Positions 3,143 through 53,755 of a stretch of DNA of 64,000 bases are shown in pieces (position 1 is the stretch's first letter; the number at the start of each line of letters is the position of its first letter). The notes beneath the pieces are model-generated. The model saw nothing but the letters and a program-made list of their open reading frames with translations. It was not told where the DNA came from and made no database searches. Source of the DNA: Schmidtea polychroa (taxonomy: Eukaryota); the NCBI GenBank assembly GCA_044892525.1, contig CM097885.1:13022001-13086000 (forward strand). The letters run 5' to 3'. The position numbers were made by a program, and so were the translations under genes.

Positions 3143-4168
3143 AGTAGTATGATGTGGGCTCCCCAGACCATGGGCCCTCCAGACCACATATACCCCCTCC
3201 CCCCCGGGAAAATTTTTTTTTAAAAAATAAAAGGTCAAGGTCATTTATTATTTTTTTTTAATTTAATTTTTTGTTTTAATTAAGTGGTCTGGCGGGCTCC
3301 TACTTTTTTTCATCCAAAAAATTAATGTTCCCGCCAACGGATTTTATTGGACGATACATCATCTTAAAGCTCAGTCCAAGACCTTTCGAATGAGCTATAG
3401 GTATCTTATATATCTTTAATAGTTTTAATGTTATTAACAATTGATGACCACCATCTTTTCAACGTTAAATTATTATTATTTTCCAAAATATTATTAATTG
3501 GCCGGGAGGGCCCCTACTTTTTTTCATCCCAAAAATTAATGTTCCCACCAACAGATTTTATTAATCAAACACTTATTTTGAAGCTTAGTGCAAGACCTTT
3601 CGAATGAGCTATTGAAGGTATTATCATCATTAACATCAGCAAAGTTATTAACATTTTACCAAAAATCATTTTCAAGGTCATATAATTATTAAGTGGTCTG
3701 GCGGGCCCCTACTTTTTTTCATCCCAAAAGTTATCGTTCCCATTATCCGAATTTATTAATCGATAGCTTATTTTGAAGCTTAGTGCAAGATCTAACTATT
3801 GATATATAAATATTATTAATATAATTATTATTGGCAAAATTATTAACGTTTTCCCGAGACCATTTTCAAGGTCATTTATTTTTCAAAATATTATTATTTC
3901 CAAGGTCATTTATTTTTCAAGGTCATTTATTTTTCAAGGTCATTCCCAAGGTCATTTATTTTTCAAGGTCATTTATTTTTTCAAGGTCGGGTGACTCATA
4001 AAGGTCTTTTTTTTTCAAGGTCATTTTTTAATTTAAGTTTTTGTTTTAATTAAGTGATCATTAAATTTTTCAAGGTCATTTATTTTTTCAAAATATTATT
4101 TTTTTCAAAATATTATTTTTTCAAGGTCATTTATTTTTTCAAGGTCATTTATTATTATTATTATTATA

Positions 4169-4217
<49 letters not shown>

Positions 4218-4304
4218 ATCTATCCGACAAAATATTCTGTCCCCCTATGGGTACTGCACACAAATGTACTACTCACACTCAACAAGTCACAAGGGTACTG
4301 TTCA
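3143..4304 (+). repeat. Left terminal inverted repeat of the Polinton (~1.16 kb)
   Basis: Reverse complement of 18076-19237. Contains three ~200-bp sub-repeats (GGTCTGGCGGGC-CCTACTTTTTTT...), (T/C)CAAGGTCA arrays and a TTA tract. Confidence 0.93.
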
Positions 4305-4372
4305 CAAAGTTACTGGTAAAAATATTCAAGACAAAACTTTCTAAATTCTAAATATTATTCTTTAAATATACA

Positions 4373-4731
4373 CTAAAATTTATTAACACATTCACATTCA
4401 TCATCTCCACAGTTCATAACATTTTCAACAACATGATCTATACAATCCCTATATATACACGGTTCAGTATCTGTAAATTCCTCCATAGGTTCATCAATTT
4501 CTTGAATGCTTTCCTCATCATCTTGAGTGTTTTCTTCATCTGTTTCATCAAATTCCGAATCTTCACTCTCTGCTACCCAGTCTATATTTAATGCGTTTGT
4601 AACAGATAATATATCCTCCATTTTCACACCAGATATTTCTGCTAATTTTTCCAATAAAAAGTTTATTATAAATTCTAAATATTAAATAATTTGATAATTA
4701 ACTAATCATATTAACCTTTTTCTGTAGTCAT
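4373..4731 (-). CDS. Small acidic Polinton protein with Cys-rich C-terminus, probably 2 exons (4731-4716, 4674-4373)
   Basis: ATG ACT ACA GAA AAA G|GT at 4731-4714 and a 41-nt intron ending TTTAG at 4675 join in frame to the 93-aa ORF (MTTEKEFIINFLLEKLAEISG...). Function unknown. Confidence 0.55.
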
Positions 4732-4834
4732 TATTAGTATTTTAAAACTATAGTATATATTTGTTTATAGAAAATATAGAATATAAGCGAAAACAAATAT
4801 AACTAAATACATTTATTAAATACAACAACATTTA

Positions 4835-5254
4835 TTAAAATAACTGTGAAAGTCTAGCAGACATAATTTTCCAAATTGGAGAATACACATCATTATTATC
4901 AACTTTATATCCTTGGATTGTAATTGTTATATACCAATTTTCGTTTTCTTTGAAGCTGATTTCATCAAAGGAATCATAAAATTTTGCATATCGGTTGTTG
5001 AAAAATGCATTTTGATTGCATGATAGATTCGTATTCAACCTTTTGAAAACATCATCTATGGTTTTAATATCTAACATTGAAAGCGTGCCGGTTAAGAATT
5101 GAAATTGGGTAGGAATTAGCTTGATCGGTGACACCAATTTCATATTGATTTCTTCTTTTAAAAAATACATTTTGTAGTTGTGGAACATTTGAACAGGTTG
5201 TACAAGTTCTGGAACTACTTTTGGTTTTTCAGTGCTTGAAATTTTCTTGGTCAT
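4835..5254 (-). CDS. Polinton accessory protein, 139 aa, unknown function
   Basis: Clean ATG-started ORF; TATAAAA (minus strand, ~5288-5295) and a CCAAT/ATTGG box at ~5317 lie upstream. Confidence 0.65.
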   Translation of the reverse strand: MTKKISSTEKPKVVPELVQPVQMFHNYKMYFLKEEINMKLVSPIKLIPTQFQFLTGTLSMLDIKTIDDVFKRLNTNLSCNQNAFFNNRYAKFYDSFDEISFKENENWYITITIQGYKVDNNDVYSPIWKIMSARLSQLF

Positions 5255-5362
5255 TGTGAATTATGATTAAAATGAAATGGTACAGGGTTTTTATACCTAT
5301 GACTATTGTTTATCATCCAATCAGATTGCAGTATGTTTTTGTTTTAATTGAATGATAAATAA

Positions 5363-5827
5363 TTAATTAAGTGATAATAAAAAATCTAAAAATTCTTTTC
5401 CTTCAATTATTGATTTAATTTCAGATATGATATTATCAACTATACATTTGTAATCAATATTTTTTATTCCAAGAATTTCTATCTTACCGCTAGCGAATAT
5501 ATTTACACACATAGGGTTATATTTTATATATCTCAAAGCTGGAAATAATTCTGGTTCATAAAAGCATGGTATTAATTTAGCTAATTTATTTAAATTACAA
5601 GAAAAACCTATATCGGAAGTTACGGTTATCGATTGTATTTCTAAATCATAAACATTATATTCACTAGCTTTGATTATTTCCTTACACCCCATAATTCTAC
5701 ATTTACCAGTTTTGAAATATATTATTGGATATTTATTACTTCTATTGATAAGTTGTTGTGGTTTCCCTATTGGAAATACCATTTTTGATACATCAGTTTT
5801 TGCCCTGTAATTTATATTTGAAAGCAT
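5363..5827 (-). CDS. TATA-binding-protein (TBP)-like protein encoded by the Polinton, 154 aa, intronless
   Basis: YEPELFPALRY...VNIFASGKIEILGIK matches TBP repeat 2 (YEPELFPGLIY...LLIFVSGKVVLTGAK). IIYFKTGKCRIMGCK matches repeat 1 (ALIFSSGKMVCTGAK). DLEIQSITVTSDI aligns with DFKIQNMVGSCDV. Confidence 0.88.
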   Translation of the reverse strand: MLSNINYRAKTDVSKMVFPIGKPQQLINRSNKYPIIYFKTGKCRIMGCKEIIKASEYNVYDLEIQSITVTSDIGFSCNLNKLAKLIPCFYEPELFPALRYIKYNPMCVNIFASGKIEILGIKNIDYKCIVDNIISEIKSIIEGKEFLDFLLSLN

Positions 5828-5931
5828 TTTAATGAAATAATTTTAAAAACTTTGATATATATAGGTATTTAAAAACAGAGTTCATTTAAATTATCAATAT
5901 AAACAATAATTATATAGTTTAAATTTAAAAA

Positions 5932-6570
5932 ATGGAATTACGAAATGATGCAGTATACCAAATCGTTGGTCCAAGTGGTAGCGGGAAAACTTTATTTGTT
6001 TGTAAATTACTAAAATCAAATTTGTTTAAAACAAAATTCAACAATATTTATTGGCATAGGGGCGCCGACGAAGAACACGGATTGACGCAATCAAGTTTCT
6101 GTCAGTTGAAAAACATGAAAATAGTAAAGGGCTTTGATAAAAACTGGTCAAGTCGTTTGAAGAAAGATGATGTCATCATTATCGATGATTTGTATCAAGA
6201 AGCCAATAAAGAAAAGGACTTTAATAATTTATTCACAAAAATCAGCAGACATGTTGGTGTAACAGTTATTTTCATAACACAAAATCTATTTCATCAAGGT
6301 GGAGCACATCGAACACGTAATTTAAATGTACAATATTTAGTTATTTTCAAGAATCCTAGAGATGCAACTGTCATTGATTTTCTTGGACGACAAGCATACC
6401 CTAATAACCGTAATTTTCTTATCAGTGCATTTCAAGATGCCACGAAAATACCGCATGGGTATATATTTCTCGATTTCACACAACAATGCCCTGATGATAT
6501 ACGCGTAAAAACAGATATTTTCAACCCAAAAGGTGCCATGGTATATAAACAAAGTTCAAAACAAAGTTGA
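5932..6570 (+). CDS. A32/FtsK-HerA-type genome packaging ATPase
   Basis: Walker A GPSGSGKT, Walker B IIIDD, and SRH...IFITQNLF motif typical of Polinton ATPases. Confidence 0.93.
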   Translation: MELRNDAVYQIVGPSGSGKTLFVCKLLKSNLFKTKFNNIYWHRGADEEHGLTQSSFCQLKNMKIVKGFDKNWSSRLKKDDVIIIDDLYQEANKEKDFNNLFTKISRHVGVTVIFITQNLFHQGGAHRTRNLNVQYLVIFKNPRDATVIDFLGRQAYPNNRNFLISAFQDATKIPHGYIFLDFTQQCPDDIRVKTDIFNPKGAMVYKQSSKQS

Positions 6571-6583
6571 AAACATATAAATC

Positions 6584-7072
6584 ATGTTTTCAAAAACAAG
6601 GATATCGGGTAAAAAACAACCAAAAGTTCCACCAACAACTAGTTATACTCCATCTAAAGAACTTATTACAGAAAATTTTCCTGCAATGAATCTTATTTCG
6701 AAAAATCCTAAACCTAAAAGTAAAACCACTAAGAAAGTAAAAGTTGTTAAAAATCATCGGAGTTTCCCGTTTTTCAATACATTGTTAAAGGCACCAAGTA
6801 TGAAAAGAAACAGTATTTTGCAATCATTTCCAAATTATGTTGTCGATGATTTACTCGATATTATACTTAAAGTAGTCAAAGGCAAGATTAAAATCAGTAA
6901 ATCTAAAAAGCAATTATTGAGTAAACATAGGAAACCTTTGCTATCATTAGTAAATAATAAAAATCGTCAACAAATGAGAAAAATTATATATAAACAACAA
7001 GGGGGATTTATCGGTGCATTGATACCTTTAGCAATATCATTATTAGGTGGAATAATAGGAAGTCGATCATAA
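6584..7072 (+). CDS. Basic core-like protein with C-terminal hydrophobic tail (adenovirus pX-like)
   Basis: Lys-rich body ending QQGG|FIGALIPLAISLLGGII, resembling the GG-cleaved hydrophobic tail of adenovirus pX. Confidence 0.6.
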   Translation: MFSKTRISGKKQPKVPPTTSYTPSKELITENFPAMNLISKNPKPKSKTTKKVKVVKNHRSFPFFNTLLKAPSMKRNSILQSFPNYVVDDLLDIILKVVKGKIKISKSKKQLLSKHRKPLLSLVNNKNRQQMRKIIYKQQGGFIGALIPLAISLLGGIIGSRS

Positions 7073-7133
7073 ACAATGGGTGCTAATCCTTCATTACCAG
7101 ACATTAAATTTAATATTAAATCTTCTTGTTGTA

Positions 7134-8192
7134 ATGGAGAAGATTTGGACGAACCCGGAAGACGAAGCCGGTTTTGGTGGAGTGGCAAAATTAAGGAAAA
7201 GAGTTCCGAATTCGAAAAAGGAAACTCAGAAGTGGTTATCAGACCAGCTTGCCTACAGTTTGAACAAACCAATGCGGAAACGATTCCCAACAAGAGCATA
7301 TAAAACATATGGAATAAATGATTTATGGCAAATGGATTTGATGGAGATGATACCCTATTCGAAAATTAACAATGGGTATAAATATATTTTAACATGTATT
7401 GATGTATTCAGTCGGTTTGCCCGAGCAATACCCGTCAAGGCAAAATCTGCAGATGAAATGTCTAAAGCTGTTAATCATTTATTTAAAGATGGACATCCTA
7501 AAAACTTGCAAACTGATTTAGGTATTAATATTATTATTTTTATTATTATTATTATTATTATTTTAGGTAAAGAATTCTACAACAGTAAAGTCAAGCAAAT
7601 CCTCAATAAATTGAAAATAAACCATTACTCAGTACATTCTCAATACAAAGCTGCTCATGTTGAAAGATTTAACCGAACTTTGAGAGATAGATTAAAGAAA
7701 TTATTCCTGCATCAAGGTAATAAAAAATGGGTATTGGTTTTACCAAAAATAATAACCAGTTATAATCACTCATCATATCAAGGACTGAATGGATTAAGGC
7801 CGATTGATATCACGTCAAAAACAATCTATTCTAAAAAACCTGAAAAAATTACAAAACCGAAATATAAAGTAGGTGACCATGTTAGAATTAGTAAAATTAG
7901 TGCATCACCATTTATTAAAAATTTCGATACAAATTGGAGTGATGAAGTCTTTGTAATTTCAAAAATAAATACTAAACAGAATCCTGTAATGTATGTCATC
8001 AAAGACAATGATAACAATATTGTACAAGGAAAATTTTATGAACAAGAATTACAAGTTATTCCTCCCCCAAAAGTATTTAGAATTCAGAAGATATTGAAAA
8101 CTAAAAAGGTCGGCAAGGATAAACAATACTATGTCAAATGGCATGGTTATCAAAACCCATCATGGATATCAGAAAAGGATCTAGTAAAGTGA
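7134..8192 (+). CDS. Retroviral-like DDE integrase with C-terminal chromodomain; 45-nt intron at 7522-7566
   Basis: WQMDL, CIDVFSRFA, QTDLG|KEF, VERFNRTL, PKYKVGDHVRI, and chromodomain YYVKWHGY...SW. The first ATG is at 7134; removing the GT..AG segment restores TDxGKEF. Confidence 0.95.
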   Translation: MEKIWTNPEDEAGFGGVAKLRKRVPNSKKETQKWLSDQLAYSLNKPMRKRFPTRAYKTYGINDLWQMDLMEMIPYSKINNGYKYILTCIDVFSRFARAIPVKAKSADEMSKAVNHLFKDGHPKNLQTDLGINIIIFIIIIIIILGKEFYNSKVKQILNKLKINHYSVHSQYKAAHVERFNRTLRDRLKKLFLHQGNKKWVLVLPKIITSYNHSSYQGLNGLRPIDITSKTIYSKKPEKITKPKYKVGDHVRISKISASPFIKNFDTNWSDEVFVISKINTKQNPVMYVIKDNDNNIVQGKFYEQELQVIPPPKVFRIQKILKTKKVGKDKQYYVKWHGYQNPSWISEKDLVK

Positions 8193-9205
8193 ATTTTTAT
8201 ACTATTTTACCAAGCAATAGTTGCCCGCTTATTCATCCAGATAATCAAGCCAGTAAATTCATGGTCAATCTCCAGAATCCGATTTCTTTAAATGGTGACT
8301 GGGAAGTTGCACTGCAAGATTTTACATTCGTGTACAATACATTCCCATTTTATAGTCAATGTAAGATTGATTTCAAAAGGAATGCTATGAAAACATGTAG
8401 TGGTATCTTTATTATCAGTAATTATGATAAAACATATCATATTCCGAATCAAATATTAGATCAGCATTGCTCTATGTTTTACAAGGATGGATTAAATATC
8501 AGTTGTGATTTTAAACCATTTACAATAACATTCGAATATATTGAAGATGCCAGACGAATGGGTTGCAATAAGTTGAAAAATGAAGTTATGGAAACAGATT
8601 ACTTATTACGCTTTGATCTATTTGAAGCAAACAGTGTAATGAGAGAAGAAATCAAAATTTCAGTGTCGTATAATAATGAAGTTGAAGAATCATTCACCTT
8701 CGCTGACGAATTATATATTGATAAACTTGATGTGTTACTTAAATATTTAAAGTACAATTGTTCACACATATTTAAAAGTTTGGACATTGTGAAAGATTTG
8801 TTATTTACCTTCAGTTTGAATGATGACATTTGCGAAGTTACATTTGATAAAAATTTGACAAATACACTTGGATTAGAGAAGCAACAATATCGGGAAAAAT
8901 CGGCTGGTATACGTAAACCAAGAATACTTGAACATCATCAACAAATGTCCATATATACTAATATGATTGAACCTATAATTGTTGGCGATTCCAGTGTTCC
9001 TCTATTGAAATCGGTATGGATTGGAAAATATGAACATGATGAAGTTGTCAATATAAATATAGATAATCCTATGTATTTACCAATTTCAAGCTCATGTATA
9101 AACAATATAGAAATAAATATTCGTGACGATAGTGGAAAACTTATAAACTTCCCAAAAGACTCAAAAACTCATTTGACACTACATTTTCGTAAAGTAGATG
9201 GCTAA
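8189..9205 (+). CDS. Minor capsid protein (penton-like)
   Basis: N-terminal FYTILPSNS...PDN...F.V.L...L.GDWEVAL and C-terminal IYTNMIEP..VGD...PLL, YLPI, IEINIRDDSG..I.F, LTLHFR. Start uncertain: GTG at 8189 overlapping the integrase stop, or ATG at 8138. Confidence 0.88.
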   Translation: MNFYTILPSNSCPLIHPDNQASKFMVNLQNPISLNGDWEVALQDFTFVYNTFPFYSQCKIDFKRNAMKTCSGIFIISNYDKTYHIPNQILDQHCSMFYKDGLNISCDFKPFTITFEYIEDARRMGCNKLKNEVMETDYLLRFDLFEANSVMREEIKISVSYNNEVEESFTFADELYIDKLDVLLKYLKYNCSHIFKSLDIVKDLLFTFSLNDDICEVTFDKNLTNTLGLEKQQYREKSAGIRKPRILEHHQQMSIYTNMIEPIIVGDSSVPLLKSVWIGKYEHDEVVNINIDNPMYLPISSSCINNIEINIRDDSGKLINFPKDSKTHLTLHFRKVDG

Positions 9206-9560
9206 TTCCGATATTATTAGTATGTATAGTGATAGCCAATCTGGTGGTGAATTACCATATTTTATCGGTAAACAGTACGGAACAGGTTGGTTAAAAACAA
9301 TAGGGAGATTTGCACTTCCTATTCTTAAACGTATTGGTAGTTTTGGCATGAAAACTGCTAAAGATGTGATTATGAATGAACAGAAAATATTACCATCTCT
9401 AAAAACAAATGCTTTAGCGGAGTTAGGGAAGGTTCTACCTGGAGTTGCTGGTATGTTTCAAAAAGATACGCCTACAGCCCCAGCTCCAAAACGTAAAGGA
9501 CATGGAATATCGCGTATAAACAAACGAATGAAAGGACATGGAACTATATTTGCAAAATGA
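9198..9560 (+). CDS. Small conserved Polinton virion protein with amphipathic helix (putative protease substrate)
   Basis: QSGGELPYF..KQYGTGWLKTIGRFALPILKRIG pattern, located between the two capsid genes, with a basic C-terminus. Confidence 0.7.
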   Translation: MANSDIISMYSDSQSGGELPYFIGKQYGTGWLKTIGRFALPILKRIGSFGMKTAKDVIMNEQKILPSLKTNALAELGKVLPGVAGMFQKDTPTAPAPKRKGHGISRINKRMKGHGTIFAK

Positions 9561-10780
9561 TTTGTGGTAAATCTGAATTATGTATATTTGATAGACCATC
9601 GCCCCAGGCTGTAATAGAATTTGGGGCCTTTGAGGAAGTTTTTCCTATGAATTCAATTACTGATAGTAGAAATGATATCGAGTTTTATATTAATGGTTCG
9701 CAAACTGAATATTTAGATTTGAACGATACTTTATTGACTGTTCAGATCAAAGTTGTAGATAAAGATAGAAAAGTTTTGGATGCCAATGCGGATGTATTAC
9801 CAAACAATTTCATGTTTCATACTCTGTTTAAAGATGCAGTGTTGGGATTTAATAATATCAAGATTGAGGGCGGAAATAATACATTCATTCACAAGGCTTT
9901 GATAGAAACTATTTTAAATTACAATTCAGATACTAAAAATACCTGTCTTACACCTATAGGTTATGCAGCAGCAGATGATGAAAGAAAAAAGTGGGTTAAA
10001 GGTTCAAAAGTATTCACTATGTGCTCATCATTACAACTTGATTTTATGGATCAACCGAAATATTTACTACCGGGAGTTAATGTACATATTAGATTGAAAA
10101 GGTCCGATTCTGCATTGTCTCTTACTAGTGCAACTGGTGCACCAATATGTCAATTAGTTGATGCAAAATTATTGGTGAGAAGAGTTCGAGTAGACCCGTC
10201 AGTATTAGCTGGTCATCAATTGGGTCTTAATTCAAAACATGCAATTTATCCTTTAAAAACAAAGGAAATTGTACAATTTGCTATTGCTAAAGGTGCTTCA
10301 TCATTCTATAAAGAACAAATATTTGGTGACAGAAGAATGCCTAATTTTATTCTGGTAACATTTCAAAGTGAAACGCAATATAATGGGTCTTATACTGCTT
10401 CCAGCTCAATTTTCAAAAACTTTGGTGTTACTTCATTGACTTTGTCGAAAAATACTGATTATAGAGAAACATATACTCAAGATTTCGAGAATGATAATTA
10501 CTGTGCGACATATATGCAGAGTATTGTTAGAAATCTTGGTTATTTAGATAAAAACTTGAATTGTGGAATAACTCTTGAAGAATTTAAAAGCAAATATCCA
10601 TTTTTCACATTTGTTTTAGCCCCCGATTTTGATTTAAATCAGAGTCAATTACCACAAAACGGAAATTTACGACTGGATATAAAGTTTGCAAAGGCCATTA
10701 CTGAACCAGTACATGTTATAATATATGGAGTATTTGAAAATGAAGTTCAGATTACTGCAAATAGAACCGTGCTAGTATAA
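9557..10780 (+). CDS. Major capsid protein (double jelly-roll)
   Basis: CGKSELCIF..P.PQ, IEFYI.G...YLDL..T.L.V, QPKYLLPGV...IRLKR, GNLRLDIKF and final ENEVQIT..R motifs of Polinton MCPs; intact 407-aa ORF. Confidence 0.92.
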   Translation: MICGKSELCIFDRPSPQAVIEFGAFEEVFPMNSITDSRNDIEFYINGSQTEYLDLNDTLLTVQIKVVDKDRKVLDANADVLPNNFMFHTLFKDAVLGFNNIKIEGGNNTFIHKALIETILNYNSDTKNTCLTPIGYAAADDERKKWVKGSKVFTMCSSLQLDFMDQPKYLLPGVNVHIRLKRSDSALSLTSATGAPICQLVDAKLLVRRVRVDPSVLAGHQLGLNSKHAIYPLKTKEIVQFAIAKGASSFYKEQIFGDRRMPNFILVTFQSETQYNGSYTASSSIFKNFGVTSLTLSKNTDYRETYTQDFENDNYCATYMQSIVRNLGYLDKNLNCGITLEEFKSKYPFFTFVLAPDFDLNQSQLPQNGNLRLDIKFAKAITEPVHVIIYGVFENEVQITANRTVLV

Positions 10781-11192
10781 ATGTATACAGAAACACCAAA
10801 AAGTTGTCATGGAGTAAGTTTTTCAATACTGTTTAATTTATTAAAGTAGTTCTGTTCAGGTCAATAGAATTGGAAAACAGATATTGGGAAATGAATTTGT
10901 AGGAGTTTTTCCTCTCGATAAAATCCCATATTTGAGCATTAATCAAGCCATAATCGTCAATACTCAATCGTCTCATCTTGGTGGAGAACATTGGATTGCT
11001 ATATATATGAAACCTAGTAATATATTCGTGTTCGATCCAATGGGTTTCTATTACCCTGCTTTGTTGGTATCAAAACTACAAACAATGGGGAAACCTATTG
11101 TATATAATAAAACTATGTTTCAAAATCCATTAACACAAACTTGCGGTCAACATTGTTTAGCTTGGTTGTTGTATAAAAAAATTGATGTTTAA
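10781..11192 (+). CDS. Adenain/Ulp1-like maturation cysteine protease, probably 2 exons (10781-10813, 10860-11192)
   Basis: FVGVFP.D, IVNT...GEHW, FDPMG, Q....TCGQHC (His/Asp/Gln/Cys catalytic set). The ATG follows the MCP stop directly; a GTAAGT..CAG 46-nt intron removes an in-frame stop. Confidence 0.88.
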
Positions 11193-11221
11193 TAAATGTA
11201 TCCTTTCCTTTGTTGTTGTTG

Positions 11222-11650
<429 letters not shown>

Positions 11651-11749
11651 TAATTAAATTTATTTTGAAAAATATTATTATCTAACTACACAATCATTGT
11701 GCATGCACAAAGTCATGACTAACAAAGATATGCAATCCCATTTGATACC

Positions 11750-11840
11750 ATTTGATTGGCTGATAGAGGAAAAAGTATTCAGAAATGTGTCTTAATTCTG
11801 ATTGGTTGAGACATGGAAATATTCCTGTTCTATATAAACA
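11750..11840 (+). promoter_or_regulatory. Candidate Pol II promoter of the pPolB gene
   Basis: Two GATTGG (reverse CCAAT) boxes at ~11754 and ~11800, and TATATAAA at 11831, about 80 nt before the ATG at 11915. Confidence 0.55.
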
Positions 11841-11914
11841 TTGACAAATTCCAAATTCATCACAATTTTATCAAAATTTTCAATTTCTAATTTTTCAAAA
11901 TTACAAACTTTAAA

Positions 11915-12967
11915 ATGTCTAACAATAACAACAACATATTAAGAAGTCTATTGACTAACGGTAATTTTATTATTTATTTATTTATTATATTTTATTCTTT
12001 ATTTTTTAGATGTGTTCGATTGGTATCAAGTTACTGAGGACGAAAGAATTTTGAATGTTGATAGGATTTTCGGTAAATTTAAATATTTTAATTTTTATGA
12101 AATTATTATTATTTTATTTAGAACCTATTATAATTAGCGACGATGATGATGTCGTGTTTATTGGACAAACTAATGCCCCGGATAATGATGCCTTATTTAT
12201 TAGGCAAAACAATGTTTTCAATAATCAAAGTAAATTTATTTTATTTTAGTATATTATTTTTTAAAAATCATTTAGTGTTTAATGTTGACATGGACGCCCC
12301 AATTAATAATGATGAGGAAAACAATATGGAAAATGTCCTCACTTCTATTGAGGAGAATAATGCTCACATATCTATTGATGAAAATAATGCCCTCACTTCT
12401 ATTGAGGAGGTAGCTGATGAGGAATCTGATTCCGATCAGGAATCACAATGTAAGCATTTATTTATTTTTATATTTCTTTAACAAAAATTTTTAAAATTTT
12501 CTTAATAACTTTTTTAAACATTTGCATAAATCTTAATCGTAAAATTATTATGTTTTTTGAATTATTATTGTAATTATGACGAAATTATGAAGAAATTACT
12601 ATGATGGAAATTATAAAGAAATTACTATGATGAAAATTATGAAAATACTATGATGAAACTAATATGACGAAAATGAAGAAAATTATGAAAATGTTATATT
12701 GAAATTATTATAACGAAAAATAGAGGAAATTATGAAAATGATGAAATTATGAAAATGATATTTGATGAAATTATTATGAAGAAATGAAGAAATTATTATG
12801 AAGAAATGATGAAATTATGAAAATGATATTTAATGAAATTAATATTATGATGAAATGATGAAATTATTATGAAATTATTAGGTTATGCAAATGTTTAAAA
12901 AAGTGATTAAGAAACTATAGTTTTAAAATATTCCTTGTAGTTTGCAATGAGCAACTACATTAGTTTA

Positions 12968-13046
<79 letters not shown>

Positions 13047-16000
13047 TATCTTGTAGTCTGCAGTGAGCATGCAGCTACATATCTCTTTTATTATGATTGC
13101 CCCAATAAATGTAGTCTGCAGTGAGCATGCAGCTACATATCTCTTTTATTATGATTGCCCCAATAAATGTAGTCTGCAGTCAGCATGCAGCTGCATCAAC
13201 TATTTATTACGTAATAAATACAATCTTTAAATGTAGTCTGCATGCAGCTGCATCAACTATTTATTACGTAATAAATACAATCTTTAAATGTAGTCTGCAT
13301 GCAGCTGCAACAAACTATTTATTGTGTAATAATTAACCCTTATTAAATATAGTCTGCATGCAGCTGCATCAAACTATTTATTTATTATGCAATAATTACA
13401 ATCTTTAAATGTAGTCTGCAGTGAGCATGCAGCTACATCAATAATAATAATACTAATATTTTTATTCTATACATATACTCTCTTTCTAATATTATTTTAA
13501 TAATTTAATATGTTTAGTTAGCATGCAACTAAAGACTCTTATTATATAAACATGTAGGTTACAGTGAGCATGTAACTACAGAAACAATAATAATAATAAA
13601 ATCCCTATTATAGTTTACAAGACTTTATTAATATTTTACAATTATTAATATTTATTTCATTTTTATATTGTATTTAAATGAAACATATATCAATAATTGC
13701 AAAAGAACTAAATGATAAAAGAAATATAAATGATATATTAATTTCATGATTAATAATAATTGATAAATATAATTAACAGGCAAATTTTATCCACATTACT
13801 GCCAGGCTTCAACTGGTCACTCAAATTTATGTCACAAAGTGATGAAAAAATATTATGGTCGTAAATTTTATGGCATCAAGTACTATATATGCCCAATATG
13901 CGAGACTTCCCATAGCATTAAATATTTAGAGTTTTACAGTATACATAAATCCCATTTAAATCAGTTCTCTTTAAATAAAAAGGATTTATTTAACAAACTA
14001 CGAAATACTGCAAAACCTATAATTAAAACTAATGTAAATAATATTACAAAACATGTAAATAATATTACAAAACCTGTAATTAAAACTAATACAAAACATG
14101 TAAATAATATTACAAAACCTCTAATTAATAATGTTATTAATGTAAATAATAATTTAAAAAGACCTGCTGTTAGTATTGGGTCTGATGCTCCCTCTAAAAT
14201 TAATAAATTAGAACAAATAACTGTGGTTAATAATATTCAAGTAGGCGGTTCAGTCGATATTGACGATGAACCTGAAATCGAAATTGATTTTAAGGGGGTT
14301 CGAAAGAATCTAAGATTTAATGTAGAAAAGGATAACATCGTTCAAATAACCATAACCGATAAAATCGTTAAGTTAAAACATGAAATAAACAGAATGGGGT
14401 CGGTGAAAATACAATTCTCTGTATTGATTCAATTTGAAAAAGATGGTGAAATTAAAGATAATTTCTTCTCGAATAGGGCAGAGGCTTTTTCAGATAGTTT
14501 TCTAAGTGAGGGGGTTCACAAATTAAATAATAAAATAGAAAAATTCACATATTTGGGTAGTGGATGGCGGGTTGTTAAAATCAAAGAAATAGATTTTATA
14601 TTAACAAAATTTACACATATGAATAGGCTAGCTGGACATAGTTACATCCCCACCCCATCATCTTTAAAATCTAAAAATGCAATAGTAAATGTTAAAAACA
14701 CCGATGATATGTGCTTTATATATAGTATTTTAGCACTTTTAAAACGTAATATTATACATAGACATAGGAACCGTGTTAGTTCCTATGAAAATTATCTCAA
14801 CGAGTTAAATTTTGACCCCATTTCCGACTGCCCAATGAAACTATGTGATATTCCTAAATTCGAGATGAAAAATAAGGATTTAAATTTAGCAATAAATGTT
14901 TTAACTTATAGAACGACCCCTGCTAAGCCTTTTGAAAATATAGTTGACGATAATTATATTCCACATCATCCCAAATTGGATATAATTCACCAATCTAAGG
15001 TTATAGGTGGTGAACCCATATACTTACTTCTATTGGAAGACGGAGATAATTTTCATTATACCGCAGTTTTTAATTTGCAAAGATTAATGAATTGTCGCTC
15101 TAGCAGTGAATGCGGCGTTAGAATTAAAGTGAACTGGTGCCCCCATTGTCTTAACGGATTTAGACTTAAAAATGCATTTGATATTCACGTTGCCTTATGC
15201 ATTAAAAACCAGATAGGTACTACTTTATATACCCTACCTAAAGAGAAAAATTTAATTTTTCAAAATTATGCGAAAACCATAACCCTGCCATTCGTGATAT
15301 ATGCAGACTTTGAATCAATTTTACCGGGGGATATAATACACCATCAAAAGCATTTGCCAATAACAGCAGGTTTATTATTAATAAATAATTATAATAACTC
15401 CAAATTTTATTATGAGTTTGTTGGGGATGATTGCATCTTATCTTTCTTGCGTAAGGTGGAGGAAATTCCTATGACAATTGTCCTACCATATTACGAAATT
15501 AATGGGAAAAAGCCCATGCAAACCTTGTCTTTCGCTGAAGAGCGGGCCTTTCGTGATTCCAGAACCTGTTATCTTTGTAAAAAATTCATTAGAAATAGAG
15601 TTAGGGATCATTGTCACTTTTCAGGTAAGTATCTTGGTGCTGCTTGTAGGAAATGTAATGTGTCTCGACGAATTCAGAAACAGTTACCTGTGGTTTTTCA
15701 CAATTTGAGGGGGTATGATCTTCATCATATTTTGAAGTATGGTTTGAATAATTTTCCTTCTTGGGAATTAAATATTATTCCGACCACTACTGAGAAATTC
15801 ATCTCTCTTATCGCGTACATTAACAAATTGTCTGTTCGTTGTATTGACAGCATGCAGTTTGTTAATTCGTCTTTAGCAAAAGCGGTTAAGACTCTTTCCG
15901 ATCTGCCTTTAACTTCTTCTGTTTTCGATGGCGCAATTGTTCGAGCCAAAGGTATCTTTCCTTATGACTTTGCCACATCTCTTGAGGTTCTAGAATCGAC

Positions 16001-17714
16001 TCTTGAATTGCCACCTATTTGGGATTCTGTGTCTAATGATGAATATGCATTAGCCTAAGTTATTTGGACTCAGCAAAACTGCAATAACATGTTAGATTAC
16101 ATGTTAACTTACCTTAAATTAGACGTGTTTCTCCTCGCAGACTATTTCCAACAATTCCGTGCAAAGGCCGTTGCTTACAATGGTCTTGAGCCTCTTAATT
16201 TCTATGGCATTCCCGGTATGTCATGGGCCTCTGCGCTTATGACATTAACGGAACCCATTGAACTTTTGCAGGACATGGAAATGTTTAATTTCTATGAAGG
16301 AGGGATACGGGGTGGGTTAACATTTGTTAACAAACATTATGTTGCAAGTTCTGAAGACACAGAACTCTTGTATATTGATATTAATAACTTGTATGGTTGG
16401 GCCTTAAGCCAAAATCTGCCTTATGCTGACTTTGTTTGGGTGTATGATGATCTTGATTCTGTCTTGAATGAATGTATGAATGCTGATATCGATAACCTTC
16501 CATATGGCTATACTATGGAGGTAGATATCGATATACCTGATTGTTTGCATGACTTTCTGAATGATTTTCCGCTTGCTCCGGAAAAGATGTGCCCGCCAAA
16601 TTCTAAAGTTGAGAAGCTGATGCTCACGCATTGGCCAAAGAAGAACCATGTTCTTCATTGGCGACTTCTCAAGTTGTATATAGAATTGGGGGCTATTATT
16701 AAAAATGTACATAGACCAATCAAATTTGAGCATGCACCCATTTTTAAATCTTACATAGACAAAAACACTAATTTGAGAGCCAATTCTACATGCGAATTAT
16801 ATAGGGATCTATACAAATTATTTAATAATAGTCTGTATGGGAAATCCGTAGAAAACCTTAAAAAACGGATGAATTTGAGGCTATGCAATTCAGCTGAAAA
16901 GATGATTGTATATGCTTCAAAGCCGACTTTCAAGAAATCTATCAAAATTGATGATGACTTGATTGCTGCACATCTCAATAAGGATTCTATATGTTTAGAC
17001 AGGCCTAGTTACATTGGCCAAACGGTGCTAGACCTGTCTAAACTGAGGATGTACCAGTTGCAGTATAAAGAATTGGCTAAATATAGAAATGAATTTAAAT
17101 GTGAGATAAATATCGTTGCCGGCGATACTGACTCCTTTTTTCTTGAGGTTAGGCACTGTAAGCTTGACACTCTTTTGCCGTCAATGATTCGTGACAATCT
17201 TTTAGACACTTCCAACTATGACCCTGCACATCCCTTATACTCTAGAAACCTTGATTCGGTGATAGGTAAATTTAAAGATGAAAGTAAAGGTCTAGGGTAT
17301 AAGGAATGGGTTTTCTTAAGACCCAAGTGCTATAGTTTGTTAGGGGTTAAAGATCATTTAAAGGCAAAAGGAGTTAGGTTAATAGGTACAGAAATTAGGC
17401 ACGATTCATATTTAGAATGCTACAATAACGACGTAGTATTTTCTGTGCCACAAAGTAAGATAGGGACGCGGAACCATCAATTGTACACATTTAAAAACAA
17501 TAAAATCGCGTTGACAAACAACGACGACAAGCGGTTTTGGGTGGGGAAAAATTCCAGTCTCGCATTTGGTCATTATTTAGCACTAGATGATATAAATGAT
17601 GATCAAATATTTGAAGAAGTTGGGGCACTATTCGGAGGATTAAGTCCAGATTTTGTTTCTGGTGATGATCCTAATGATGAAATTGATATTGACGATGTAC
17701 AATTGAGTGATTAA
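11915..17714 (+). CDS. Protein-primed family B DNA polymerase; predicted exons 11915-11960, 12010-12072, 12122-12229, 12276-12449, 13780-17714; single in-frame TAA at 16056-16058
   Basis: Exonuclease motifs YADFES, FHNLRGYD, YLKLDV. Polymerase motifs YIDINNLYG, KLFNNSLYGK, GDTDS. Also GSGW, an NTDDMCF...FHY region and an EndoVII-like CxxC..RDHCH insert. The two large ORFs share a frame, and four phase-1 GT-AG introns join the upstream exons in frame. Confidence 0.93.
12937..13580. repeat. Array of ~10 palindromic units GTAGTCTGCA(GTGAGCA)TGCAGCT(A/G)C with ~58-bp period
   Basis: Copies at about 12937, 13053, 13111, 13169, 13232, 13290, 13350, 13411 and 13554, plus an isolated copy near 18016. 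Confidence 0.85.
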
Positions 17715-18075
17715 GCGATTTTAATATATCTTTTTCCTGTGATAAATAAATATAACTTTGTAAAAACATTGATTTGTGTTGATTTTTATTAATGAAAAGT
17801 TTTCGTATTTCTTTCTATGGATAAAAATCATTATATTGTGTAATATTATTAAACATTCCTTAAGTGTTTAAACATAGAAAGTATATTAAAAATTGTTTTA
17901 TTATTGAAAACTAGTAATGTTGTCACTATGGAACAGGACTTTGTTTTGAGCCATTAAAAGAATTTAAATTTTTATAAAGTTTTATTTAATTTGATAATAC
18001 TGTTCATATTTACTTTAGTTTGCAGTGAGCATGTAACTAAATATCTTTGAAAAAAAAATAATAATAATAATAATA

Positions 18076-18162
18076 TGAACAGTACCCATGTGACTTGTTG
18101 AATGTGAGTAGTACCCATGTGAGCAATACCCATAGTGGGACAGAATATTTTGTCGGATAGAT

Positions 18163-18238
<76 letters not shown>

Positions 18239-19237
18239 TATAATAATTATAATAATAATAATAAATGACCTTGAAAAAATAAATGACCTTGAAAAAATAA
18301 ATGACCTTGAAAAATATAATGATCACTTAATTAAAACAAAAAATTAAATTAAAAAATGACCTTGAAAAAAAAGTCCTTTATGAGTCACGCGACCTTGAAA
18401 AAATAAATGACCTTGGAAAATAAATGACCTTGGGAATGACCTTGAAAAAATAAATGACCTTGAAAAAATAAATGACCTTGGAAATAATAATATTTTGAAA
18501 AATAAATGACCTTGAAAATGGTCTCGGGAAAACGTTAATAATTTTGCCAATAATAATTATATTAATAATATTTATATATCAATAGTTAGATCTTGCACTA
18601 AGCTTCAAAATAAGCTATCGATTAATAAATTCGGATAATGGGAACGATAACTTTTGGGATGATAAAAAGTAGGGGCCCGCCAGACCACTTAATAATTATA
18701 TGACCTTGAAAATGATTTTTGGTAAAATGTTAATAACTTTGTCAATAATAATGATGATGATACCTTCAATAGCTCATTCGAAAGGTCTTGCATTGGGCTT
18801 TAAAATAAGTGTTTGATTAATAAAATCTGTTGGCGGGAACATTAATTTTTGGGATGAAAAAAAGTAGGGGCCCTCCCGGCCAATTAATAATATTTTGGAA
18901 AATAATAATAATTTAACGTTGAAAAGATGGTGGTCATCAATTGTTAATAACATTAAAACTATTAAAGATATATAAGATACCTATAGCTCATTCGAAAGGT
19001 CTTGGACTGAGCTTTAAGATGAGGTATCGTCCAATAAAATCCGTTGGCGGGAACATTAATTTTTGGGATGAAAAAAAGTAGGAGCCCGCCAGACCACTTA
19101 ATTAAAACAAAAAATTAAATTAAAAAAAAATAATAAATGACCTTGACCTTTTATTTTTAAAAAAAAATTTTCCCGGGGGGGAGGGGGTATATGTGGTCTG
19201 GAGGGCCCATGGTCTGGGGAGCCCACATCATACTACT
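18076..19237 (-). repeat. Right terminal inverted repeat of the Polinton
   Basis: Near-identical reverse complement of 3143-4304; similarity decays at the inner end. Confidence 0.93.
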
Positions 19238-20749: not shown

Positions 20750-21270
20750 TTTCAATTACAGTAAATAATGGTCCAAATTTTTAAAATACAGTAAATTATG
20801 GTTCTAAAAAATTAAAATACAGTAAATAATGGGTCTAAAAATTAAATTACAGTAAATTATGGTCCAAATTTTAAATTAAAGTAAATTATGGGCTAAGATT
20901 TTTGAATTAAAGTAAATGATGGTCTAAATAAGTAAATCAAGGTCCAAAATTTTAACTTAGAGTAAATTATGGGCTCAGATTTTTGAATTAAAGTTATCAA
21001 TGGGCTCAAATAACTAAATTAAGGTTCAAATTTTTAAATAAAAGTAAATTATGGGTATAAAAATTCAATTACAGTAAATAATGGTCTAAATTTTTGAATT
21101 AATGTAAATTTAGGTTCTAAAATATTAAATTAAAGTAAATAATGGTCCAAATTTTAAAATTAAGTAATCAATGGTAAAAAATTTTAAATAAGTAAATTAA
21201 AGTAATAATTTTTAAATAAGTAAATTAAAGTAATGTAATAAGTAAATTAAAGTAAGATTTTTAAATTTAT
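20750..21270 (+). repeat. ~30-bp subterminal tandem repeats (AAATTACAGTAAATTATGGTC..)
   Basis: Directly visible; mirrored at 32280-32860. Confidence 0.8.
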
Positions 21271-21549
21271 TAACAAAATGTTGAAATAATAGAAGGTGTT
21301 TGAGAATTGAAATTTTTTAATGAAAATTTTTATGAAATAATTTTTTAAGTAATTTTTAATGGAGATTTTTATGAAATATTTTTCAATGGTAATTTTTATT
21401 GGAAATTTTTATGGAATAATTTTTTAAGTTAATTTTTAATGGAGATTTTTATGAAATATTTTTCAATGCTAATTTTTAATGGAACGTTTTAAGATAATTT
21501 TTAATGGAAATTTTTATGAAATATTTTTCAAAGACAAATTTTAATAATA

Positions 21550-22900
21550 ATTCAACAACAAACCAACAACTTAGTACCAACATGTATTTACAATTAGATA
21601 CTAACAACCAAAAACAAGCAACCAACTAGGTACCAGATACCAAGTACTAACAACCGCCAACAACCAGATACCTACAACTAGTTACTAACAACATGTTACC
21701 TGATACCAAGTACTTACAACTAGATACCTTGCACTAACTAACTCTCAAACAACCAGATACTTACAACCAAGTACAAGATACCAAGTACTAACAACCGAAA
21801 ACAACCAGATACCTACAACTAGTTACTAACAATTAGTTACTAACAACCAGTTACCTGCTACTAAGTTCTTACAACCAAGTACTAACTACCACCTACCATG
21901 TACTAACAACCAAAAACATGCAACCAACTAGCTAACTAACAACCAGTTACCTGATACCAAGTACCTACAACTAGATACTAACAACATGTTACCTGATACC
22001 AAGTACTTACAACCGACAACAAGCAGGTACTAAGCATCATCAACCAACTACTAAGTACATACAACCAACTAACAACTACTTACAACCAACATCAACCAAC
22101 TACCTACAACTAGTTACTAACAACCAGTTACCTGATACCAAGTACTTACAACCACCCACCCATTAACCAACATCAATCAGCTAACAACTAGCTACCACCT
22201 ACCCATTAACTAGCTACAACCAGCTAACTAGGTACTAGATACCAAGTACTAACAACCCACAAAAACCAGCTAACAACCAGCTAACAACCACCTACCAAGT
22301 ACTAACAACCGACAACAACCAGTAACTTACGAACATGTATTTACAACCAGATACCTACAACTAGTTACTAACAACTAGTTACCTGATACCAAGTACATAC
22401 AACTAGATACTAACAATCAGTTACCTGCTACTAAGTACCTAAAACCACCTAACAAGTACTAACAAACGACAACAACCAGGTACTAAGCATTATCAACCAT
22501 GTACTAACAACTAGATACCAAGTACTAACAACCAGTTACCAACTACTAAGCACCTACAACCACCTACCAAGTACTAACAACCGCCAACAACCAGATACCT
22601 ACAACTAGATACTAACAACCAGTTACCTGCTACCAAGTACCAACATCAACCAACTAGCTACAACCTACCAAGTACTAACAAACGCCAACAACCCATTAAC
22701 TAGCTACTAAGTACTATCAACCTACAACAACCAGGTACTAAGCATTATCAACCAAGTACCTACAACCAACAACAACTAGCTACCACCTACTAAGTACTTA
22801 CAACCAAGTATAAGATACCTAGTACTAAGCACTGTCAACCAAGTACTAACAACTAGATACCAGGTACTAAGCACTGTCAACTAGATACCAAACACTTACA
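21550..22900 (+). repeat. C/A-rich shuffled short-motif array (ACAACCAGTTACC, GATACCAAGTACTAAC)
   Basis: Dozens of permuted copies, mirrored as a shorter G/T-rich array at 31290-32015. Confidence 0.85.
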
Positions 22901-23207
22901 ACTAAATGACCACATGAAATTATTGGTTAAATATGAAAATAAGGGTTATATTTAGTTGTTAAGTAAATTATGGTGTAAAATTAAGTAATAAAGAATAATT
23001 AGGTAAATTAAGGATAAATTAAGGAAAATTAAGGTTCAAAATTTAAAATTAAAGCTAAAGGAGTAAATTAAAGTAATAATTTTTAAATAAGTAATGTAAT
23101 AAGTAAATTAAACTAAGATTTTTAAATTTATTATCAAAAGATTGAATAACCACCAACTTTTTTGAGAAATGTAATTTATAATGAAAATTTAAATGGAAAT
23201 TTTAATG

Positions 23208-23280
<73 letters not shown>

Positions 23281-39046: not shown

Positions 39047-53755
<14,709 letters not shown>

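Follow-up and report, generated by a model that had tools for sequence, protein, structure and literature searches.

The core genes of Maverick/Polinton elements are described in the literature as lacking introns. The genes of intact vertebrate Mavericks are reported to lack introns in the part of PMC8097293 available to us, and in a nematode element, according to the accessible text of 10.1101/2022.07.12.499685, the core genes are intronless and introns occur in cargo genes. In these elements (adintoviruses), the family B DNA polymerase that is primed by protein (pPolB) has a TP-vOTU-Exo-Palm plan, as described in excerpts of PMC11161782, PMC8502044, and PMC8097293. Here, we describe a stretch of Schmidtea polychroa DNA (assembly GCA_044892525.1, contig CM097885.1, positions 13,022,001 to 13,086,000 of the forward strand; this whole stretch of 64,000 nt is called the window) that contains a complete Maverick/Polinton whose pPolB appears to begin with a coding leader of four small spliced exons. 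We put the probability that such a leader is joined to pPolB in this family at roughly 0.82. It is a real, family-wide gene structure of a known element class. Splicing of Maverick polymerases goes unmentioned in the available portions of PMC8502044, 10.1101/2023.08.22.554363, PMC6431247, and PMC7851563. The literature searched, whose scope excluded Repbase reports, most subscription journals, and supplements, likewise yielded no account of an animal Maverick whose pPolB has a coding leader added by splicing, so that an earlier annotation is possible.

The element and its proposed polymerase gene are laid out in the window copy as follows.

3143-19237: complete Maverick/Polinton, 16,095 bp, with inverted ends and a target duplication on both sides
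11755-11837, plus strand: promoter-like region (putative function) with two inverted CCAAT boxes (ATTGG, at 11755 and 11801) and TATATAA at 11831
11915-11960, plus strand: leader exon 1, 46 nt, starting with ATG and ending in phase 1
11961-12009, plus strand: intron 1, 49 nt, GT..AG
12010-12072, plus strand: leader exon 2, 63 nt
12073-12121, plus strand: intron 2, 49 nt, GT..AG, with one contig end consistent with its removal
12122-12229, plus strand: leader exon 3, 108 nt, with the motif-like stretches PIIISDD (SIM-a-like) and DDDVVFI (SIM-r-like), SIM standing for SUMO-interacting motif
12230-12275, plus strand: intron 3, 46 nt, GT..AG
12276-12449, plus strand: leader exon 4, 174 nt, acidic, with internal repeats, its last base opening a split Cys codon
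12450-13779, plus strand: intron 4, 1,330 nt, full of repeats, GTAAGC..CAG
13780-17714, plus strand: last exon, pPolB, with a zinc-finger-like region, linker, and predicted TP, vOTU, exonuclease, and polymerase

All four leader exons are stop-free and end in phase 1, and together they give 131 codons when the junction codons are counted, with 29 Asp or Glu versus 4 Lys or Arg. The earlier note on this DNA had placed an ATG at 11915, four exons, GT-AG introns of 49, 49, 46, and 1,330 nt, all of phase 1, and about 130 acidic leader residues, and our reexamination agrees with it on each of these points. The GC content of the three short introns is 6 to 9% versus 28 to 37% for the exons. The claim that the 1,330-nt intron lands in the pPolB frame also held. 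Of the 32 YAG sites in the interval 12490-13900, just one, at 13779, yields a long frame when joined in phase 1 (758 codons, compared with 70 or fewer for the rest). Other statements needed adjustment. The large open reading frame (ORF), annotated from a GTG, is indeed open further upstream, but no more than 7 nt 5' of the acceptor (the stop-to-stop ORF begins at 13773), and an in-frame ATG at 13842 directly follows the GTG at 13839. The TATA box proposed upstream of the leader is present, but the CCAAT boxes are inverted. These promoter-like boxes are kept in 12 aligned rows, one of which has point changes in its second CCAAT box.

Sister copies were sought in the genome assembly (781 Mb in 1012 contigs, the four largest contigs used being 93 to 272 Mb long), and we analyzed 30 loci chosen by the leader, the window copy included, and 20 loci chosen by the polymerase. 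All 30 leader-chosen loci retain the start ATG, the first two introns, and an intron 4 donor, which is GTAAGC in 14 and GTTAGT in 16. The intron 3 acceptor is kept in 29, and phase is maintained through all four exons in 28; two loci have a one-base deletion. The leader was found in 18 of the 20 polymerase-chosen loci, with phase 1 throughout in 17 of the 18; the defects among them are one stop, one lost donor, and one frameshift. Splice-site conservation in sister copies, which the earlier note had named as a check, is thus what the copies display. Exon lengths change in steps of three, exon 3 being 108 or 87 nt and exon 4 being 120 to 201 nt (174, 201, 180, or 120 nt), and intron 3 differs in length by single bases. 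Both ends of intron 4 were located in 47 of the 50 loci, with an acceptor AG in 46 and the split codon TGC in 47 of 47; its length ranges from 899 to 1,467 nt, with residues modulo 3 distributed 15/22/10 (n = 47). Half of the leader-bearing loci (9/18) have a nonhomologous 52-nt exon 1 and an altered start of exon 2 (60 nt), which retain the ATG, the GT-AG boundaries, and phase 1, although exon 2 of one of these nine loci has a frameshift. Exon variants are found in mixed combinations across the copies, which suggests recombination between copies that would make them mosaics of variants. Within intron 4, the window copy has an array of ~57-nt units with a conserved core (13050-13450), and this core recurs in the divergent family L051/L052.

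Five divergent loci in the same genome (L051 to L055), in which the middle part of pPolB is 51 to 69% identical to that of the window copy, were analyzed with exon boundaries set partly by hand from lists of donors and acceptors. Each of the leaders of L051, L052, L053, and L055 has every exon in phase 1 and stop-free. The leaders of L051 and L052 comprise five exons and include duplicated units that resemble exon 3, and those of L053 and L055 comprise three short, nonacidic exons. L054, on the minus strand, has the same start and last junction and was excluded from the exon tally for one missing acceptor. The counterpart of intron 4 is 199 to 1,545 nt long and differs in sequence in these loci, and the last junction is TGT (Cys) in all five. 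Exon 2 is 68% identical in protein sequence to a divergent-family counterpart, and the 18 base changes between them fall 4/3/11 on the three codon positions, a third-position bias. These comparisons bear on another explanation, in which the layout in this AT-rich DNA would be fortuitous or decayed, or would be a 5' leader that does not code. In its favor, GT and AG abound in such DNA, and neither exon 4 nor the polymerase N terminus has a protein match. Against this stand the exon length steps of three, the alternative exon 1 that remains in phase, the third-position bias of exon 2, and the recurrence of the same layout in four families, by which this explanation is largely refuted; we regard it as most improbable. 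Taken together, the copy and family comparisons give good support to a host-style multiexon pPolB gene, as the earlier note had proposed, with weak additional support from the one contig end described below.

The split cysteine and the motif it completes are the strongest evidence for a join between exon 4 and the polymerase. In six of six loci (the window copy and the five divergent ones), a predicted zinc-binding motif, C-x4-6-C-x3-6-H-x2-4-C, needs the split codon to be complete, and in all six it precedes the first in-frame Met, at codons 19 to 21. Among 150 database relatives, five match this C-C-H-C pattern within the first 400 residues. Only one of the 150, P0003, a close full-length relative with 50% identity in the C-terminal part, has the motif within its first 110 residues, where it occurs in two copies in an uninterrupted frame.

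To place the leader relative to the domains of pPolB, we used a structure model of the residues encoded by 13782-15500, built from an 81-row alignment (mean predicted local distance difference test [pLDDT] score, 73.8). It has a confident C2H2-like element at model residues 33 to 61, followed by a disordered linker, and a confident alpha/beta domain at residues 186 to 276. Two domains are predicted from it.

about 14337-14609, plus strand: predicted TP, inside the last exon
Cys 14712 and His 15054, plus strand: predicted vOTU, both residues kept in 95% of the 81 aligned rows

The putative assignment of the alpha/beta domain to TP is in keeping with weak matches to Y-family polymerases (best E value, 0.017), which fit the likeness between TP and little finger domains described in the part of PMC11161782 available; a Foldseek search against the PDB returned nothing at an E value of ≤0.001. 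Strong matches by fold came from proteins of adintoviruses and MELD viruses, and these, with the weak Y-family ones, fit the TP-vOTU-Exo-Palm plan given in PMC11161782. Because TP is predicted within the last exon, the leader would be an addition ahead of TP and not TP itself. With the leader, 316 residues precede TP, compared with a median of 110 (range, 0 to 302) in 80 database relatives, many of which may have N termini truncated by gene callers. The pPolB linker includes an N/T/K/P-rich repeat (14011-14163), the copy number of which varies in frame between copies.

Read contigs from runs X1, X2, X3, and X8 were compared over window positions 11700 to 12440; no run is on record as RNA, and three, X1 among them, are only guessed to be RNA. 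One X1 contig end, aligned from 12117, has nine unaligned letters that equal window positions 12059 to 12067. Together with the five letters aligned on the intron end, they match the final 14 bases of exon 2 and are in register with exon 3. A second X1 contig starts at 12121. An exact pattern search, which copies with other differences would escape, found no genomic copy without intron 2. The X1 contig end is suggestive of exon 2-exon 3 splicing, and of the junction reads that the earlier note had called for, it fits the one at 12072/12122.

Several observations weigh against the proposed gene. This read evidence is a single contig with 14 letters on its short side, from a run of uncertain kind. 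No joint was listed for any intron in the read contigs over 11700 to 12440, where the sole joints are local go-backs within the exon 4 repeat; X2 and X3 have no contigs matching this interval, and X1 also has contigs in which introns 1 and 2 are retained and DNA 5' of the TATA box is included. Since the read comparison was confined to this interval, the join of exon 4 to pPolB is predicted from the genomic letters. The copies are related, and counts such as 28 of 30 are not counts of independent events. Among the 30 close loci, substitution-variable columns number 1/49, 0/49, and 0/47 in introns 1 to 3 and 8/46, 12/63, 16/108, and 49/201 in exons 1 to 4; the short introns are thus less substituted than the exons, the reverse of the usual pattern, of which their near-pure A/T makeup or fast evolution of the leader may be the cause. 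Exon 4 had no match among longer database proteins. The N-terminal 256 amino acids of the polymerase had no database protein match either, and because searches with both parts matched nothing, no database protein spans a leader junction. A weak Pfam match of exon 4 to IpaB_EvcA (E value of 0.004, below the cutoff) was dismissed as compositional. The zinc motif pattern was devised after the sequences had been inspected, the BLASTP alignment of the N terminus to P0003 covers only the downstream C2H2 part (E value, 1e-4), and model residues 1 to 32 have pLDDT values of <50.

Signals in and around intron 4 likewise count against the joined gene. An unspliced product would be permitted by the in-frame ATG at 13842 together with the TATA-like words at positions 13543 and 13725. 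Intron 4 also contains five AATAAA sites, and reading through donor 4 would meet a stop after 10 codons. With these signals, exons 1 to 4 could be a separate small spliced gene, encoding ~140 amino acids, ending just past donor 4, and polyadenylated in the long intron, with pPolB starting at its own ATG at 13842; that the sole read evidence concerns the exon 2-exon 3 junction would suit such a pair of genes. However, four families have the donor, the acceptor, and a split Cys codon in common although their intron 4 sequences and lengths differ, the frame from the acceptor to the first Met is open and retains the Cys and His residues in six of six loci, and there is no inverted CCAAT box 5' of 13842. 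We therefore consider two genes quite improbable.

The same stop and poly(A) signals could instead serve a regulated choice, in which splicing yields the full polymerase and retention or early polyadenylation yields a short acidic protein or degraded RNA, so that the splicing state of the host gates replication. The cysteine arises through splicing only, exons that are all of phase 1 permit skipping, and intron-retaining contigs occur in both X1 and X8. These unspliced contigs may be DNA, though, any AT-rich intron is expected to have stops and AATAAA sites, and the donors and acceptors are ordinary, which makes a choice of this kind improbable.

Under the preferred reading of one spliced leader-pPolB gene, host RNA polymerase II would transcribe from the putative inverted-CCAAT/TATA promoter, and the host spliceosome would very likely join the four small exons to the large polymerase exon, with the last splice completing the first Cys of the predicted zinc-binding motif. 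The leader would add an acidic, probably disordered N terminus of ~130 residues, and the product would begin with the leader, followed in order by zinc fingers, the linker, TP, vOTU, and polymerase. If the vOTU cuts TP off, as in the model outlined in the accessible part of PMC11161782, the leader would be on the same side of the cut as TP. Because every intron is in phase 1, the exons can be swapped, extended, or duplicated without a frameshift. The leader is most likely a fast-evolving, flexible segment for host contact or spacing, without a catalytic role.

The earlier note had seen a resemblance to tandem SUMO-interacting motifs. Exon 3 does fit both the SIM-a and the SIM-r patterns, as these are defined in the excerpt of PMC5825156 available, and in 20,000 shuffles the patterns occurred in 5.4% and 6.7%, respectively, and both in 0.5%. 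The likeness was only partly kept across families: SIM-r is present twice in each of L051 and L052, neither pattern occurs in L053 or L055, and overall SIM-a is missing in four of four divergent loci and SIM-r in two of four. Exon 3 resembles known motifs of this kind in both patterns, in its acidic segment, and in lying outside any Pfam domain; it differs in that its motifs are known here by sequence pattern alone. The genome has at least 150 ubiquitin-like matches, many of them in tandem ubiquitin-like arrays or in open frames of 500 to 1,400 codons, and the host SUMO could not be singled out among them. A lineage-restricted SUMO-binding role for exon 3 may be entertained as a tentative possibility. 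More doubtful is a broader proposal in which the leader would be an exon-shuffling cassette, its symmetric phase-1 microexons being swapped and duplicated between lineages to tune host contacts, tandem SUMO-binding motifs included, and its last splice, as the sole source of the first zinc ligand, gating the replication protein via host splicing.

Other genes of the element have intron-like segments as well.

7522-7566, plus strand: intron-like (ATT)n insert of 45 nt within the integrase core, GT..AG
10814-10859, plus strand: candidate protease intron, 46 nt, which would connect the protease frame to a short exon with an ATG (10781)

The integrase insert is present in 11 of 11 rows at lengths of 42 to 123 nt, each divisible by 3, and has no stop in frame, so that, if retained, it would add a hydrophobic run to the catalytic core; its removal by splicing is putative. 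The protease candidate is 46 to 47 nt long in 25 of 31 rows, one of the 25 lacking the AG. The integrase thus appears to carry introns too, and the protease probably does. Introns in pPolB, the integrase, and probably the protease would imply that the element is transcribed in the nucleus and depends on the spliceosome of its host.

Membership in the Maverick/Polinton class is plain from the element itself. Its terminal inverted repeats are ~1.16 kb each (94.9% identical over 1,167 aligned nt), and a 6-bp target-site duplication, GTAGCC, flanks it on either side. Pfam searches of the window proteins found a family B polymerase domain (PF03175; E value, 9.5e-17), an integrase (rve; E value, 4.3e-8) with a weak chromodomain match, a packaging ATPase (Pox_A32; E value, 1.9e-7), and an adenain protease (Peptidase_C5; E value, 1.3e-6). 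The ORFs at 9497-10780 and 8123-9205 had no Pfam match; in position and size they are as expected for capsid genes. The element also encodes a TBP-like protein (5363-5842, minus strand; PF00352; E value, 7e-14), adjoined by two small ORFs without assignment (4373-4681 and 4835-5260, minus strand), and each inverted end has three ~171-nt repeats (3276-3855 and 18526-19105). The family is a high-copy one: with a 237-amino-acid polymerase piece as the query, the best 150 of 10,798 candidate matches in the genome are 94 to 100% identical, and many of these 150 sit in open frames of ~1,350 to 1,400 codons. The window copy has an in-frame internal stop in pPolB (16056-16058), overlooked in the earlier note, because of which it would be unable to make the full polymerase. 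In L051 and L053 (G000:C1 near 5.47 Mb and 3.48 Mb), a capsid-size ORF and the protease are 93 to 97% identical to those of the window. Because the middle part of the polymerase is only 51 to 69% identical, polymerase-plus-leader modules appear to have been swapped onto one capsid module in these loci.

A rearranged form also recurs, in which polymerase matches lie inverted, back to back, 2 to 5 kb apart. Examples are the following, and L052 and L054 are further ones.

G000:C1:150506171/150508122: inverted polymerase pair
C2:58446667/58448705: inverted polymerase pair
C1:260973941/260976963: inverted polymerase pair

Elsewhere in the window, a big foldback region with nested inverted arms and no long ORF spans ~20900 to 32900 (the 1,548-nt arms at 24962-26509 and 27544-29091 are 99% identical), and an ORF for a hAT-family transposase of 623 amino acids lies at 40936-42807 (minus strand).

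The element shares with Mavericks and adintoviruses the terminal inverted repeats, the 6-bp target-site duplication, pPolB, integrase, packaging ATPase, adenain protease, and the vOTU Cys and His. It differs from them in that their core genes are reported as intronless, whereas here pPolB would have a coding leader of three to five exons and the integrase and probably the protease would have introns. Dinoflagellate Maverick-Polinton-like elements carry introners, mostly gained after integration, according to the part of PMC11957031 available, and are alike in having spliceosomal introns inside integrated Maverick-like elements. Their introns are transposon insertions, however, whereas those proposed here are short and AT rich, occur in all copies and several families, have phase 1 throughout, and lie together within a coding leader. 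Group I introns are carried by protist polinton-like viruses (accessible text of PMC12220804), and planarian Polintons are desilenced on differentiation and on PIWI knockdown (excerpt of PMC8532177). Because Mavericks are usually annotated as sets of intronless ORFs, ORF callers would start a pPolB such as this one at the wrong Met and lose its N terminus, a zinc ligand included. With its very many young copies, this family could be a natural system for the study of intron retention and exon shuffling.

The earlier note had also likened the gene to the spliced adenovirus E2B leaders for pTP and polymerase. In adenovirus, the shared 5' exons are largely noncoding and contribute few residues. 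The part of this comparison that held is the layout, with several small 5' exons ahead of a long splice that reaches the last coding exon of a gene for protein-primed replication. What did not hold is the nature of the parts, the leader here being coding (~130 residues in one gene) and TP and OTU being predicted in the last exon. The adenovirus pTP and Ad-pol are made from separate mRNAs with the first three 5' exons in common, as stated in the available part of PMC11304566. The adenovirus vOTU is inactivated, whereas here a TP-like domain and an intact vOTU Cys/His pair would both lie in the polymerase exon. Adenoviruses are thought to be descended from polintons (PMC11161782, in the part available). 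The pPolB gene proposed here resembles the adenovirus E2B unit in architecture only, a likeness of arrangement and not evidence of a common origin of splicing.

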